A program made the translations under genes and the position numbers. DNA of 64,000 nt from an uncultured Clostridiaceae bacterium (GTDB lineage: Bacteria > Bacillota > Clostridia > TANB77 > CAG-508): the NCBI GenBank assembly GCA_950096965.1, contig CATNCV010000001.1, positions 323-64,322 on the forward strand. Direction: 5' to 3'. The notes below the pieces were generated by a model. The model ran no database searches. It saw nothing but the letters and a program-made list of their open reading frames with translations, and was not told the DNA's origin. This document shows positions 38,336-54,929 of the stretch, piece by piece; position 1 is the stretch's first letter, and each line of letters begins with the position of its first letter.

Positions 38336-38613
38336 AAAGCATACCTCCAAAAGCCAATCAATAAAAGAACACAACCACTAGTTATAAAATAATTATACCA
38401 TAAAATGTAGATATAATCAAATAAAATAGGGCAATTAATTAAAAGGCATATACATATTGAGAATAATCAACTCTTATTCTAAAATATTAATTTTCCAATA
38501 GCAAAAAAATAAGCAATTGCTATACAAATAAAATAATAAAACAAAAAATGTTGAAAAAGATAAAAAAGTAAGATATAATTAAATAAGAACAGAAAATGAA
38601 ATGGAGGAAACAA

Positions 38614-39108
38614 ATGAAAATGAAAAAAATTATAAAAATAACATATATACTAATTATAATAGCTATTTTATTAACACCAATTAGTAATGTAAAAGCAATT
38701 GTAACAAACTGTCCTTCATGTAATGGAAGTGGACAAAGATATGAACCAAGAAAAAGTGGGTTTGTTACATGCCAAACGTGTAGTGGAACAGGAAAAGTAG
38801 GATCATCTTCAACAGGAGCAGCAGCAATAAACCCAGATGATTATAAACCAAATGACCTAACAGCATCAGACTATCAAAAGCCATTTGCATTTGCAAGAAC
38901 AATACTAAATGCCATAACAATAACAGGTGTAGTTATATGTGTAGTAACAGTTATGTTCTTAGGAATAAAATATATGGTAGGAAGTGTAGAGGAAAAAGCA
39001 GAATACAAAAAAACTATGATACCTATAATAGTAGGAATGGTAATGCTGGTTTGTACAAGTACAATTGTATCAATAATATATAATATGGTTAGCCAACTAA
39101 ATAATTAG
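38614..39108 (+). CDS. secreted VirB2/TrbC-like pilin-type protein with a DnaJ-type CxxCxGxG zinc-finger insert
   Basis: Signal peptide, then CPSCNGSG and CQTCSGTG, then a C-terminal TM-loop-TM (..VMFLGIKYMVGSVEEKAEYKKTMIPIIVG..) shared with two downstream paralogs. Confidence 0.4.
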   Translation: MKMKKIIKITYILIIIAILLTPISNVKAIVTNCPSCNGSGQRYEPRKSGFVTCQTCSGTGKVGSSSTGAAAINPDDYKPNDLTASDYQKPFAFARTILNAITITGVVICVVTVMFLGIKYMVGSVEEKAEYKKTMIPIIVGMVMLVCTSTIVSIIYNMVSQLNN

Positions 39109-39134
39109 TTTTAAATATTGAAAGGAAATAAAAT

Positions 39135-39587
39135 ATGAAAAAAAGTAAATATAAAATATTAGTAGTAATATTAATAAGTATTATATTAGCAATGGCAGTA
39201 ATACCAGTAAATGCTGTTACTAATAATGAAAAAAGCTATCAAGGTGAAGAAACACTTACCTTAATGATAGCAGGAAAATCAACAGCAGGACAAGTTATAG
39301 GTGATGGAGATTCATTTATACAAAAAGGGAGCAATCATGCAAGTGGTATATTCTCTACAAGTGAATTACAAGATTTATCAAGCACCATATATAATATTTT
39401 GCTAGTAGTAGGAATAGTAATTGCAGTACTATTAGGAGCAGTATTAGGAATAAAATTTATGATGGAAGGTGCAGAAGGAAAAGCAGAAGTACAAAAGGCA
39501 CTAGTTCCTTATGTTATAGGCTGTGTAGTAATATTTGGAGCATTTGCAATATGGAAAATAGTAGTTACTGTATTACAAGGTTTATAA
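39135..39587 (+). CDS. secreted VirB2/TrbC-like pilin-type protein (paralog 2)
   Basis: Signal peptide plus C-terminal TM-loop-TM (..LGIKFMMEGAEGKAEVQKALVPYVIG..). Confidence 0.4.
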   Translation: MKKSKYKILVVILISIILAMAVIPVNAVTNNEKSYQGEETLTLMIAGKSTAGQVIGDGDSFIQKGSNHASGIFSTSELQDLSSTIYNILLVVGIVIAVLLGAVLGIKFMMEGAEGKAEVQKALVPYVIGCVVIFGAFAIWKIVVTVLQGL

Positions 39588-39689
39588 GATAAAAATAGTA
39601 AAAAACAAAAAAAAAGTAAAAAATAGTTGAAAAATAGTAAAATATATATTATAATTAAAATAGTAATGAAAATTTTAAGGAGGAAAATT

Positions 39690-52036: not shown

Positions 52037-52108
52037 TTTAAAAAAATTGTAAACTTTTAGTAGTTTACAATTTTTTGTTAGTAATATATAATAAATTTAG
52101 GTGATAGT

Positions 52109-53681
52109 ATGAACACAGAAAAATTAATAGGAAAAAAAGAAAAAGTAAAAATAATAGGAAAAACAAAAAGTAAAAAATATTATGTAGGAAAATCACTAGA
52201 AAATAGCTACAATATATATATAGAAGATACAGGAGACTATAGTGATGATGAACTAATAGGAGAAGAACAAGAATGTTTAATAATAAATATTATAAAAAAT
52301 AATATAATAGGCTTTATACTAGACGATAGAAAATTTTTAAATGATATAAAAACGATAAGAAATATATTAAAAAACACTGATGAATATGAAAAAATAGAAG
52401 ATATATATTTAATGGAAAGACTAAAAATAAAAGGTAAGGTGCTAGGTTTATATTTAGTAGATAAAGGTGAAACACGGAAAGTACTATCTAGATACATTAG
52501 AAATAGGAACATTAAATAAAAAAATAATAGATAACAATATATTATTTAAAGAAAGAAAAGTAGAAGAAGAATTAGGAAAGCAAATACGAGATGTTGTAAT
52601 GAGTATAGACTTAAGAAAAAAGGAAATATCTTTAATAAAAGAAAATGAAAAAGAAAAAGACTTAATAGAAAAAGCCTTAGGACTTGAGCCAGAATATGAA
52701 ATAACATCTATAGCAACCATAAGTTTAAGAGAAAAACTAATAGAAGAACAGAAAAAGAAAACCAAAAAAGAAAACAAAAACATATTAATAAATTTACCTA
52801 AAAAACTAAATACTACAAAAGATGTAAATATAAAACAAGAAATGAAAATGAATAGTAAAGTAACAGACATGAAAACCTTAGAGCAAATATTAAAAGATAA
52901 TGAAAAACTTCCACAAATAAAAAATAAAAAATTTATAAAAATGGGAATAATAGAATCAGACCATAGGGATAATTTACTAGACACAAAAACAGGTGAAAAA
53001 GCAAAAGTAAATACAACAAGGTATTCATTTGTAGCAATAGCAAATGATGGAACAGTAGTACCATTAGACTTAAAGCAAGACCACCAAGAAGGAAATAACC
53101 CAAATGAAATAAATTATCAAGTAAACCAAAAAGGAGAAGTAGAGCAAGATGATGTAACTTCAAGGTTTAAAATAGGAAGTGGAACATTTGCAGTAAAAAA
53201 AGGAGACTATGGCGAAATAGAAGTATATCATTCTCCTAGAAAAACAATAGGAGGAAATGGCGTAGAAGGAAATAAAAGCTTAGATAGACAGTTAGAAACA
53301 GACAATGTATGGATAATGAAAAAAGAAGTTAGGGACTTAGCAGCAAAGTATAAAACAGGTTATAGAAGTGTAGAAGAAGGCTACCAAGAGGCCAAAATGC
53401 ATGAAAATGAAAAAGGCGAAATTATACAAAGCGATAAAATGAGAGTAGAAGACATAGATGGAATAGAAAATACAAAATCACATATTCATGACAATGTAAA
53501 CTATGAAGATTTGGCAATAAAATGGGGATATTATAAAGAAGGAAAACCAAACTTAGAAAAAGCAAAGCAATTATATGGAGAAAAAAGAAAAGAAAATCCA
53601 AAAGCAGAAGAAAAAGAAATAATAGAAATGGTAACAGAAGAATTAGAAGAACAAATATGGCATGAAAGAGAAGGTAGATAG
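52109..53681 (+). pseudogene. hypothetical protein (~524 aa, Lys/Glu-rich), disrupted by a +1 frameshift at ~52475
   Basis: 136-aa and 404-aa ORFs join when the C in ACA[C]GGA is removed (..VDKGET | GKYYLDTLEIG..). Confidence 0.5.
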
Positions 53682-54008
53682 TAAAGTAACAATTTGGGGC
53701 TATAATGGTCTTAGGTATTAGCATGATAAAGCCACTTCTGTTTTCCAATAATTACTAAAATCAATATAAAAATTGCTTTACATTAAAAAATGGTTATGCT
53801 ATAATTTTTTATATTATATAAATAATCTTTATAAACAATTGCTACTAAAATAGTTCAAAAAAATAATCTAAATGATACTACTATATTGAAGAATAGTAAG
53901 AAATTGACATATATTATAAAGATATAAAATTTAATAAAGAATGAATAGTGAATAATTAAATATATAATACGAACATAATCGAATGTATTTTTTAGAAGAG
54001 GTGTAAAC

Positions 54009-54929
54009 ATGAATCAAATATTATATGTAGAAAAAAATAAAAAATCAGGAAAGTTAGAAACTAAAACAACAGTAAAAATTTTTGCAATAATAATTTTAAT
54101 ATTTGGAATAATTCTAGCTATGTTTGGTGGATATAAAATATATAATTCAGTAATAATTGAAGGAAAAAAAGAACCAGTAATAGAAGTAACACAGTTAGAA
54201 GGAAAAGTGCAAATAAAAGTAGTGCACAACAAAGCAATAGATAAAATAATATATACATGGAATTCAGAAGAAGAAAATATATTACAGGGAAAAAATAGAA
54301 ACGAAATAATAGAGGAAATAGAAGAACCTTTTGGAAATAACACATTAAATTTAAAGGTAATAGATAAAAATAAAAAAGAAACAACATATCAAAAAGAGTT
54401 TTATAGAGAAGAAAAAGATACAACAAAGCCAGAAATAGAATTTGAAGTAGAAGGTTCAAAAGTTAAAATAGTAGCAAAAGATGAAACTGCAATAAGCTAT
54501 ATAATGTATCATTGGAACAATGAAGAAGATACTGTAGTAGAAGTATTAGAAGAAAACGGTAAAAGAATAGAAGAAAGAATATCAATACTAAAAGGAGAAA
54601 ATACGCTTACAATATTAGCAGTAGATAAAGAAGGAAATGAAACGAAAAAAGAGCAGATATTTAAAGGGGCTAAAAAACCAAATATACAAATAGTACAAGA
54701 AAATGACCAAGTACGTATAACAGTAACAGACGAAGAAAATATAAAGAAAATAGATATGAATATAAATGGAAGTACCCTATCAACTGACCCAGAAAATACA
54801 GATGTGCCACTTAACTTAAAAGAAGCACAATTTATACAAAAATTATCACCAGGAAATAACACAATAACAATAACAGCTTACAATGTAAGTGGGTTATCAG
54901 AGCAAAAAACACAAGAAATAACATTATAA
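54009..54929 (+). CDS. membrane-anchored protein with three ~90-aa Ig-like repeats
   Basis: N-terminal TM, then repeated modules (IIYTWNSEEEN.., ISYIMYHWNNEED.., ..ITITAYNVSG). Confidence 0.45.
   Translation: MNQILYVEKNKKSGKLETKTTVKIFAIIILIFGIILAMFGGYKIYNSVIIEGKKEPVIEVTQLEGKVQIKVVHNKAIDKIIYTWNSEEENILQGKNRNEIIEEIEEPFGNNTLNLKVIDKNKKETTYQKEFYREEKDTTKPEIEFEVEGSKVKIVAKDETAISYIMYHWNNEEDTVVEVLEENGKRIEERISILKGENTLTILAVDKEGNETKKEQIFKGAKKPNIQIVQENDQVRITVTDEENIKKIDMNINGSTLSTDPENTDVPLNLKEAQFIQKLSPGNNTITITAYNVSGLSEQKTQEITL

Follow-up and report, generated by a model that had tools for sequence, protein, structure and literature searches.

A type IV secretion module with a pilin array and no local relaxase, probably fixed on the chromosomes of small-genome gut Clostridia

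The stretch of DNA considered here, referred to as the window, comprises 64 kb of contig CATNCV010000001.1 (GenBank assembly GCA_950096965.1) from an uncultured Clostridiaceae bacterium of the order TANB77, family CAG-508. It has a G+C content of about 27%, and its genes lie mostly on the + strand. Between 38596 and 54929 the + strand open reading frames (ORFs) form an unbroken run that encodes parts of a type IV secretion system (T4SS), and the coordinates given to this run in a preliminary description of the window, which had been made from the sequence letters, were found to hold. We consider it probable that the portion from 38.6 to 52.0 kb is a chromosomally fixed, vertically inherited monoderm T4SS of the MPF_FATA-like (mating-pair formation) type, that it is core to a clade of small-genome gut Clostridia that includes TANB77, and that it most likely serves contact-dependent exchange and not self-transfer. 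The features of this portion are listed below, with protein lengths in amino acids (aa) and transmembrane segments abbreviated as TM.

38596..39108, + strand: pilin 1, with a signal peptide, two CXXCXGXG motifs and a VirB2/TrbC-type two-helix pilin domain
39135..39587, + strand: pilin 2, VirB2-like, with a signal peptide and two TM helices
39690..40062, + strand: pilin 3, VirB2-like, with a 1-nt insertion near 39885 (from three-frame translation against orthologues)
40263..40571, + strand: PrgI/VirB3-like small membrane protein (26.2 bits for Pfam PrgI, where the cut-off is 27)
40605..41813, + strand: TrsD/TraC-like protein of 402 aa, with an N-terminal TM anchor and a domain homologous to the N-terminal region of VirB4
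41767..43740, + strand: VirB4 ATPase of 657 aa, with Walker A (KSGAGKS) and Walker B (VLVDEAW) in the translation
43757..46579, + strand: VirB6-like polytopic protein of 940 aa, assigned from position, topology and weak profile matches
46259..46523, + strand: 45-bp tandem repeat of 5.9 copies in the VirB6-like tail, encoding RTRTQN(V/T)NP(D/N)GGTTR
46634..47575, + strand: bitopic protein of 313 aa, with a TM segment, an NTF2-like domain and a beta-sandwich; VirB8-like candidate at the level of fold
47614..48078, + strand: N-terminal fragment of the wall hydrolase with its TM anchor (a single ORF with the body in related locus L007)
48029..50683, + strand: body of the wall hydrolase, with a SleB-type lytic transglycosylase (Hydrolase_2) and an M15 peptidase; putative VirB1-like role
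50701..50832, + strand: detached N-terminal TM stub of the three-NTF2 gene, in another frame (from three-frame translation against L005 and L041)
50804..52036, + strand: protein of 410 aa with three tandem NTF2-like domains, of TcpC/OrfG/VirB8-like architecture

The Pfam scan took in all ORFs of 110 aa or more across the whole window, and comparisons were made with about 95 related loci (numbered with an L below) that reach about 10 kb to either side of virB4 and total 1.79 Mb. Counts of loci include only those with enough sequence for the gene in question. Precomputed Pfam annotation for the neighbourhoods of six species was used beside these scans.

The VirB4 ATPase matched the VirB4 C-terminal domain in PDB entry 4ag5 (9.5e-27), the NCBIfam model conju_CD1110 for the CD1110-type VirB4 (1.7e-60) and a second NCBIfam VirB4 model (1.9e-53), the latter two under the equivalog cut-offs, and it matched the Pfam families P-loop_TraG, AAA_10 and DUF87. 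Its profile also aligned to PrgJ (6e-16) and Orf16 (1.5e-10), and a match to CedD (5e-6) covered the P-loop region only. The small membrane protein at 40263-40571 was matched by PrgI in all 27 of the orthologues tested, with a best E value of 8.9e-10. The protein between these two, which had been described as bitopic, is indeed membrane-anchored, but the NCBIfam coordinates and PF26593 identify it further as TrsD-like and paralogous to the N-terminal region of VirB4: residues 53-280 align to positions 90-280 of the 894-position VirB4_plasma model (1.3e-4), the virB4 product covers positions 272-892 of the same model, and an identical 402-aa protein carries the precomputed annotation PF26593, TraC-like. 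The hidden Markov model (HMM) of the TrsD-like family aligns weakly to residues 7-54 of Tn916 Orf16, and that of the VirB4 family begins only at about residue 220 of PrgJ and Orf16. Direct comparison of the 402-aa and VirB4 families by hhalign gave nothing (probability 0.6%). Because the same arrangement is found on the Clostridium botulinum plasmid p12/29, the division into two genes is taken to be old and not the result of a local frameshift. A separate TrsD-type protein is characteristic of the pGO1-type subclass and of the CPR-type T4SS (the latter from the candidate-phyla-radiation bacteria discussed below).

Three tandem VirB2-like pilin genes form the start of the run. Pilin 1 exceeded the Pfam cut-offs for both T4SS_pilin (38.2 bits, 1.5e-9) and TrbC (29.5 bits, 8.6e-7), and its hydrophobic segments lie at residues 12-30, 106-124 and 144-162. 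Pilin 2 matched TrbC (5.5e-5) and T4SS_pilin (2.3e-4) under the Pfam cut-off, and it matched the NCBIfam Mbov_0395 pilin-like family of the mycoplasma integrative and conjugative elements (ICEs) with an E value of 5.8e-6. Pilin 3 reads as 39690-39923 (77 aa) followed by 39928-40062 (44 aa). Its orthologues are unbroken in L002, L003, L007 and L092, the last with 123 aa and matches to TrbC and T4SS_pilin, and the gene is probably a recent pseudogene in the species of the window that is intact in the sister species. Two DnaJ-type zinc-finger motifs (DnaJ_CXXCXGXG, 4.2e-5) stand between the signal peptide and the pilin domain of pilin 1. These motifs occupy residues 36-69 (window 38701-38805) and, on assembly of the pilin, would be exposed on the exterior of the cell. 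For most relatives the detectable similarity of pilin 1 is confined to the C-terminal pilin domain, and the N-terminal region appears variable.

The VirB6-like protein consists of an N-terminal TM segment, an ectodomain of about 140 aa, a pilin-like TM hairpin, further TM segments and a hydrophilic, basic tail of about 540 aa, and it has at least five hydrophobic segments (residues 9-27, 172-190, 208-226, 301-319 and 341-359). Among 30 orthologues, the T4SS_pilin-like hairpin was recognized in 24 and TrbL_4 in 4. A weak match was obtained to the Mbov_0396 TM protein (3.3e-3), and the TM region is 26% identical to the gene at the same position on p12/29, while the family HMM gave no match to TcpH, Orf15 or PrgH. 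The protein has either 925 or 940 aa among contigs of the same species, and the two lengths differ by exactly one arginine-rich 15-residue repeat unit.

A single VirB8/TcpC-like candidate had been proposed in this region, and its NTF2 fold was recovered in the AlphaFold2 (AF2) model of the 313-aa protein; there are, however, two such candidates, the second being the 410-aa protein. Models built from alignments of database homologues reached mean confidence (pLDDT) values of 87.6 for the 313-aa protein and 92.3 for the 410-aa protein. Foldseek returned only generic NTF2-like and sandwich matches for the former (best E value 8e-4), and for the latter it returned weak matches to Agrobacterium tumefaciens VirB8 (2cc3), ICESt3 OrfG (7pkw) and pCW3 TcpC (3ub1), with E values of 0.05-0.09, among many generic NTF2 proteins. 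No sequence match was found between the HMMs of the NTF2-fold families and TcpC, Orf13 or PrgL, and sequence-profile searches of the PDB with the 402-, 321- and 410-aa families returned nothing. Both predicted NTF2-fold proteins are VirB8-like at the level of fold only. Orthologues of the three-NTF2 protein that are less than 57% identical have 435-462 aa and a hydrophobic N-terminal segment, and the closest relatives have 410-412 aa.

The body of the wall hydrolase was matched by Hydrolase_2 (2.5e-19) and Peptidase_M15_4 (9.6e-18), domains that differ from the usual SLT and CHAP pair of two-domain peptidoglycan hydrolases. The position of the gene in the operon and the size of its product (about 800-1440 aa) are constant, but the catalytic domains are swapped between species. 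In place of the Hydrolase_2 and M15_4 set of window 48029-50683, the hydrolases at the same position in L093 (16181-18850), L094 (5644-9954), L095 (6925-9975) and L096 (6271-9999) have the domain sets C39_2; NlpC/P60, GDSL and lysozyme2; Amidase_3 and lysozyme2; and M23. Such swapping fits either normal VirB1 turnover or adaptation to the walls of target cells. In summary, the Pfam, NCBIfam and PDB matches confirm the order of pilins (TrbC), PrgI and VirB4 given in the preliminary description, and the two catalytic domains confirm its SleB plus M15 hydrolase; its VirB6 assignment drew weak profile matches only.

The genes of DNA transfer are missing from the window. As the preliminary description had stated, the Pfam scan of ORFs of at least 110 aa detected neither a coupling ATPase of the VirD4, TcpA or FtsK type nor a relaxase nor a recombinase of the tyrosine or serine type in the 64 kb, and the only mobile-element-like gene encodes a PD-(D/E)XK (Rpn-type) nuclease (21181-22053). 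Searches of the 1.79 Mb of related loci by phmmer with PcfC, TcpA, Orf21, PcfG, MobT, TcpM and integrases yielded a single type IV coupling protein (T4CP), in L049, and no relaxase, a result that leaves room for novel relaxases and for distant loci. The precomputed Pfam annotation of the six species' neighbourhoods likewise contained no T4CP, relaxase or recombinase, except for serine-recombinase fragments in L083. These fragments (Resolvase, Recombinase and Zn_ribbon_recom of a large serine recombinase; L083:1-1114) come from a strain of the same species and lie about 6.5 kb upstream of the pilins, where other strains have an NMT1-family binding-protein gene, and they look strain-specific and unrelated to the module. 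No competence or recombination gene was linked to the module in any locus with examined annotation.

Relatives of VirB4 were found in at least 582 stretches in a scan that took one genome per GTDB species. The best 80 of these are 81-92% identical over the full VirB4 length, and nearly all come from metagenome-assembled genomes (MAGs) of uncultured gut Clostridia or Clostridium, including Clostridium sp. CAG:780 and Ca. Merdicola, with one titled Bacteroidaceae. A protein database search with VirB4 gave 7011 matches, and the top 120 clusters were all at least 89% identical. Merdicola belongs to the family CAG-508 of the order TANB77 (PMC13106387), an uncultured, low-GC gut order with reduced genomes (PMC11680825), and the complete MAG chromosomes of the clade measure 1.57-1.70 Mb.

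Within this clade the module stays in place. The M16 peptidase gene M16b lies upstream on the same strand in 54 of 56 loci; the pilins, PrgI and the TrsD-like protein were present in 64 of 64 loci, the VirB6-like gene in 66 of 66, the 313-aa NTF2-fold gene in 63 of 66 and the three-NTF2 gene in 61 of 66. The synteny comparison suggested by the preliminary description thus gave the same flank in 54 of 56 species, unlike the patchy distribution expected of a mobile element. Pairwise distances of VirB4 and M16b were correlated with a Mantel r of 0.86 (p 0.001, 42 taxa), the same value as for M16a against M16b. The mean pairwise p-distance of VirB4 was 0.135, against 0.32 and 0.40 for the two M16 peptidases, so VirB4 changes at less than half the rate of its neighbours. 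In L094, where VirB4 is 79% identical, the module (5644-19130) is rearranged: the hydrolase and the gene with three NTF2 domains come first, followed by the pilins, PrgI, TrsD, VirB4 and VirB6, and the whole directly follows gidA-gidB-parA-parB, an origin-proximal context in Firmicutes. A pair of ABC transporter genes follows the module in L094, and likewise in L096.

Ratios of nonsynonymous to synonymous substitution (dN/dS) were determined against L092, a species with a 97% identical VirB4, at dS values of 0.3-0.57, which are unsaturated. The values were 0.047 for VirB4, 0.059 for M16b, 0.17 for the TrsD-like protein, 0.24 for the VirB6-like protein, 0.18-0.27 for the NTF2 proteins (0.18 for the three-NTF2 gene), 0.25 for the hydrolase and 0.37-0.44 for the pilins (0.37 for pilin 1). 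All module genes are under purifying selection, and the faster evolution and paralogy of the pilins fit surface exposure. G+C content at third codon positions (GC3) is 0.11-0.18 in the module genes, within the flank range of 0.12-0.24, and the raised total G+C at 41-47 kb arises through codon positions 1 and 2. Between the two flanks, the longest direct repeat in common has 15 nt, compared with 12-17 nt in shuffled sequences, so there are no repeats beyond chance and none resembling attachment (att) sites. The G+C and att-site checks that had been proposed therefore show no trace of insertion, and the conserved synteny, the co-divergence of VirB4 and M16b, the native GC3 and the missing repeats argue together for vertical inheritance.

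Four genes of the run are split in this species relative to intact orthologues, namely those of pilin 3, the hydrolase, the three-NTF2 protein and a 530-aa lineage-specific protein downstream. In the hydrolase, the TM anchor is separated from the body where a 23-bp tandem duplication (47976-48020) lies; the three-NTF2 gene is divided between the TM stub 50701-50832 and 50804-52036, and the 530-aa gene between 52109-52519 and 52467-53681. The gene calls at the splits are identical in all eight same-species contigs, from different samples, that reach them; the frameshifts are therefore real, and assembly error was ruled out as their cause. The hydrolase and 530-aa splits are common to the sister species L092 (the hydrolase split also to L003), and both halves have dN/dS values of 0.16-0.25 between the two species. 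The split hydrolase, three-NTF2 and 530-aa genes still evolve under constraint, and because both halves of the hydrolase and 530-aa genes are constrained between species that share the splits, the split forms are probably still used. Different splits, in pilin 3 and VirB6, occur in L093. Truncated-looking genes unrelated to the module also occur in the window at 15470-16006, 26118-27436 and 57889-58377, a set that comprises Lactamase_B_2 (C-terminal part of the profile only), ABC transporter ATPase/permease pieces and an Amidase_3 gene without a start. The truncation of unrelated genes, together with the different splits in another species, suggests a general tendency of these genomes to gene disruption and not a targeted decay of the module.

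The remaining features of the run and its immediate flanks are as follows.

37914-38081, + strand: Spo0E-like gene in the left flank (not the minus-strand ORF)
38551..38579, + strand: promoter-like site, TTGAAA-17-TATAAT, 17 nt 5' of the pilin 1 gene (consensus match only)
40080..40104, strand not assigned: terminator-like hairpin at the boundary between pilin and machinery genes (pattern match only)
52109..53681, + strand: lineage-specific soluble protein, 530 aa elsewhere and here 136 aa plus 404 aa
54009..54929, + strand: bitopic protein with weak Ig-like repeat matches, of uncertain module membership
55044..55056, + strand: terminator-like hairpin ending the co-directional gene run (pattern match only)

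The clade-wide conserved module ends at about 52.0 kb, and the interval from 52.1 to 54.9 kb is lineage-specific, so the extent of 38596-54929 originally given to the module stands for its larger part only. Similarly, the three large hypothetical membrane or surface proteins that had been placed at its end are heterogeneous, consisting of the three-NTF2 protein, the 52109-53681 protein, which has no TM segment, and the bitopic 54009-54929 protein. The 52109-53681 gene is one ORF in L003, L007 and L093. Its product shows 45-66% identity in most of L001-L014 and weak partial matches in a few other loci, with no family match in Pfam or NCBIfam searches, and its dN/dS is 0.16-0.22. The 54009-54929 gene was found in no related locus, most of which end short of that point, and in L093 a different gene stands in its place after the 530-aa gene. 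The hairpin at 40080-40104 and that at 55044-55056, both pattern matches only, would fit differential expression of pilins and machinery. The promoter scan was uninformative in this AT-rich window, with 117 such sites against 109 expected from shuffles.

The flanks are core genes, as had been noted. The left flank contains S21, YqeY, the two M16 peptidases (M16a and M16b) and the Spo0E-like gene, and the right flank contains a response-regulator-GGDEF protein, a ClpX-like AAA ATPase and an Amidase_3 fragment. A GGDEF gene lies downstream of the T4SS-like module both in the window (55101-56039) and on p12/29 (L090:14272-15321), and the two are alike at the domain level only (36% over 66 aa); a c-di-GMP link is conceivable. 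Elsewhere in the window, a SAM riboswitch (RF00162, 81.4 bits, 9917-10018) precedes the S-adenosylmethionine synthetase gene (10305-11333). A DNA/RNA non-specific endonuclease gene (Endonuclea_NS_2, 4.3e-26) at 16919-18104, about 20 kb upstream of the module, overlaps a preceding 125-aa ORF, possibly a further case of a split gene, and the endonuclease might have a part in scavenging nucleic acids.

To place the module among known systems, an exhaustive search of 1.84 billion cluster representatives for VirB4 relatives was performed. It revealed a gap in identity: the clade's own 50%-cluster representative stands at 65%, and the next full-length VirB4 proteins, with Heliorestis and a Peptostreptococcaceae MAG as the named relatives, lie at 40-42% and below. 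On annotated plasmids, VirB4 is 43% identical in Clostridium beijerinckii, 42% in C. botulinum type E and about 31% on Bacillus and Paenibacillus megaplasmids. The C. botulinum type E plasmid p12/29 has the same order of a pilin-like gene, a small membrane protein, a TrsD-like protein (25%), VirB4, a VirB6-like protein with the pilin-like hairpin and a two-domain hydrolase (C39_2 and 3D). It differs in being plasmid-borne, in having a downstream ATPase of the T2SS/T4P/T4SS (type II secretion, type IV pilus, type IV secretion) family, and in the single pilin-like gene recognized among the ORFs scanned near virB4, against the array of three in the window. The two NTF2-fold genes were not found on p12/29 by tblastn. 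Since p12/29 and other Clostridium plasmids share the core gene order, the ancestor of the module was probably a Firmicutes plasmid-type module.

The closest parallel in organization is the chromosomal T4SS of Patescibacteria, which contains an MPF_FATA-derived VirB4, TrsD, PrgI, VirB6 and arrays of 2-11 divergent VirB2-like pilins, has no relaxase and often lies near the replication origin (Quinonero-Coronel et al., 10.1101/2025.01.22.634366). In Ca. Southlakia epibionticum the genes SEML1_0006-0019, which include pilins and adjacent hydrolases and lack recognizable coupling or relaxase proteins, are essential for epibiotic growth (PMC10633639). According to a review of December 2025, the Patescibacteria T4SSs are unique among monoderms for their pilins and essentiality, VirB2 being otherwise absent from Gram-positive T4SSs (PMC12857230); this and 10.1101/2025.01.22.634366 agree with the earlier remark that a VirB2-like array is unusual for Firmicutes. 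The module shares with these systems a chromosomal and lineage-wide occurrence, a separate TrsD-type protein, PrgI, a VirB6-like protein, a VirB2 array, hydrolases by virB4, a cluster without relaxase or T4CP, a reduced-genome host that is uncultured or dependent and, in L094, an origin-adjacent placement. It differs in its host, a member of the Bacillota (Clostridia), and in its two NTF2-fold bitopic proteins and the VirB6-like protein with a pilin-like hairpin and long basic repeat tail. Its nearest named VirB4 relatives, at 33-43%, are those of Firmicutes (Clostridium plasmids, Heliorestis and Peptostreptococcaceae) and do not belong to the candidate phyla radiation (CPR), which suggests that this VirB4 lies outside the CPR clade and that the domestication was a separate one.

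With the Tn916 orf17-13, ICEBs1 conB-cwlT, pCW3 tcp and pCF10 prg blocks, the module shares the order of a VirB3-like protein, VirB4, a VirB6-like protein, a hydrolase and an NTF2-fold VirB8-like protein (orf17-16-15-14-13 in Tn916). Those elements, in contrast, carry a T4CP, a relaxase and an integrase or replicon, have no VirB2 pilins, and encode VirB4 in one piece of about 800 aa, whereas the VirB4 of the window has 657 aa, and a separate protein supplies its N-terminal region. The archaeal Ced/Ted and Helicobacter ComB systems are also chromosomal, lack a relaxase and combine a VirB4-type ATPase with small membrane or pilin proteins, but there is no specific sequence relationship, and the envelope and accessory proteins are different. 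The pilus cluster already published for TANB77 (Kim et al. 2024, PMC11680825), another envelope-appendage cluster conserved across the order, is an unrelated Tad machine of CpaB/TadZ/CpaE/CpaF/TadBC and type IV-like pilins; identity with it was ruled out because its ATPase is CpaF, and the paper mentions VirB4 or a T4SS 0 times. A prophage or phage origin was also rejected, as only distant matches (at most 26% identity) to unannotated faecal 'Bacteriophage sp.' contigs were obtained. No paper describing this module or a T4SS in TANB77 was found.

Taken together, the genes would encode an envelope channel and a pilus that are driven by VirB4 and serve contact-dependent exchange. PrgI/VirB3 and the TM-anchored TrsD-like protein would recruit VirB4 hexamers to the membrane, the VirB6-like and NTF2-fold bitopic proteins would provide a scaffold that spans membrane and wall, the membrane-anchored bifunctional hydrolase would open the peptidoglycan, and VirB4 would extract the VirB2-like pilins from the membrane and polymerise them into a pilus or conduit. 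The exchange with other cells could then take the form of uptake of DNA or macromolecules, export of effectors, or attachment, as has been proposed for the Patescibacteria system. Exchange of this kind is favoured over self-transfer because the DNA-processing and substrate-coupling parts are missing locally. The known T4SSs without a coupling protein comprise the DNA importers ComB and Ced/Ted, Ptl as a two-step secretor, and the VirB system of Brucella. For this reason, uptake of DNA or macromolecules, attachment and unconventional export are the plausible roles in a monoderm. The co-option for a non-conjugative function that the preliminary description had considered fits these data, indirectly, since neither a T4CP nor a relaxase turned up in the window or, for the approximately 95 loci with L049 excepted, at a distance of up to about 10 kb from virB4.

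Several points weigh against contact-dependent exchange by a co-opted T4SS. The clade is uncultured, and the function of the T4SS is a prediction from its genes. VirB6 and VirB8 were assigned from their position, topology and fold and from a few weak profile matches, and not by sequence homology to characterised proteins. The absence of coupling protein and relaxase covers the window (38 kb upstream and 9 kb downstream of the module) and about 10 kb around virB4 in related genomes; the Patescibacteria T4CP homologues usually lie far from virB4 (10.1101/2025.01.22.634366), and T4CP genes may likewise lie elsewhere in TANB77 genomes. In L049 a VirD4-like gene (259-1749; PcfC phmmer 1.7e-50) lies immediately upstream of the M16 pair. 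Furthermore, p12/29 is itself without an annotated relaxase or T4CP and is typed non-mobilizable, so a lack of DNA-processing genes nearby may characterise this subtype and not signal co-option. Finally, with four frameshift-split genes the apparatus may be impaired in this species.

Among other explanations, the preliminary description had raised that of a decayed ICE remnant from which the relaxase, coupling protein and integrase have disappeared and which is on its way to being lost. The window without these three genes, the four split genes here and the other split genes in L093 are what such a remnant might show, but at the level of the clade it was rejected, and we give it hardly any credence: position and order are the same in 54 of 56 species, with a Mantel r of 0.86 against the housekeeping flank; VirB4 has a dN/dS of 0.047 and diverges less than its neighbours; the split genes are held at 0.16-0.25 even between two species that share the splits; GC3 is native and att-like repeats are missing. 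It is quite improbable, in turn, that this is a working conjugation apparatus whose coupling protein and relaxase are encoded elsewhere and which exports chromosomal DNA or mobilisable elements between TANB77 cells. Each component has conjugative homologues, the nearest relatives are carried by large plasmids of Clostridium and Bacillus, virB4 and T4CP genes often lie far apart (10.1101/2025.01.22.634366), and L049 has its VirD4-like gene beside the M16 pair; against this, a T4CP lies within 10 kb in only 1 of about 95 loci and a recognisable relaxase in none, and order-wide vertical retention with strong constraint on VirB4 would be unusual for transfer without an element that benefits.

A DNA-import machine comparable to Helicobacter pylori ComB or archaeal Ced/Ted, which would supply a reduced genome with DNA for recombination or with nucleotides, is unlikely. 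DNA importers are among the known systems that lack T4CP and relaxase (reviewed in PMC12857230 and 10.1101/2025.01.22.634366), the tail of the VirB6-like protein is long, basic and rich in arginine, and the genomes are small, as the complete MAG chromosomes of 1.57-1.70 Mb indicate. However, no competence or recombination gene is linked to the module in the examined loci, and the affinity to Ced consists of a weak P-loop match (CedD, 5e-6). Contact-dependent export or antagonism, in which the large hydrolase or other effectors would act on neighbouring bacteria, appears decidedly improbable. A hydrolase that keeps its position and size while its catalytic domains are swapped is reminiscent of polymorphic effectors, but two-domain hydrolases with varied domains are also the normal VirB1 equivalents of Gram-positive conjugation systems, no immunity-like gene was identified, and effector-translocating T4SSs are known to need a T4CP.

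With contact-dependent exchange as the preferred role, TANB77 can best be regarded as a second lineage, following Patescibacteria, in which a relaxase-less monoderm T4SS with a pilin array is fixed on the chromosome, and this T4SS is apparently undescribed. A bolder proposal, which we regard as quite unlikely, is that the TANB77 bacteria are partner-dependent, possibly epibiotic Firmicutes that have converged on the Patescibacteria strategy, combining a Tad adhesion pilus with a pilus-forming, relaxase-less T4SS, both conserved throughout the order, the latter drawing DNA or other macromolecules from neighbours. If true, this would explain the small genomes of TANB77 and their resistance to cultivation; the T4SS would then count as an organelle critical for fitness, and monoderm conjugation machinery would have been domesticated independently a second time.

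The component set of Patescibacteria is now seen fixed and strongly constrained in a bona fide order of Clostridia, which suggests that monoderm conjugation machinery has been co-opted more than once. In a clade of current biomedical interest, the module contributes conserved proteins exposed at the surface (pilins, hydrolase and ectodomains), in addition to the Tad pilins that have already been linked with immune effects in the host. It also offers a testable lead on how the small-genome TANB77 bacteria interact with cells, and possibly on why their isolation fails.

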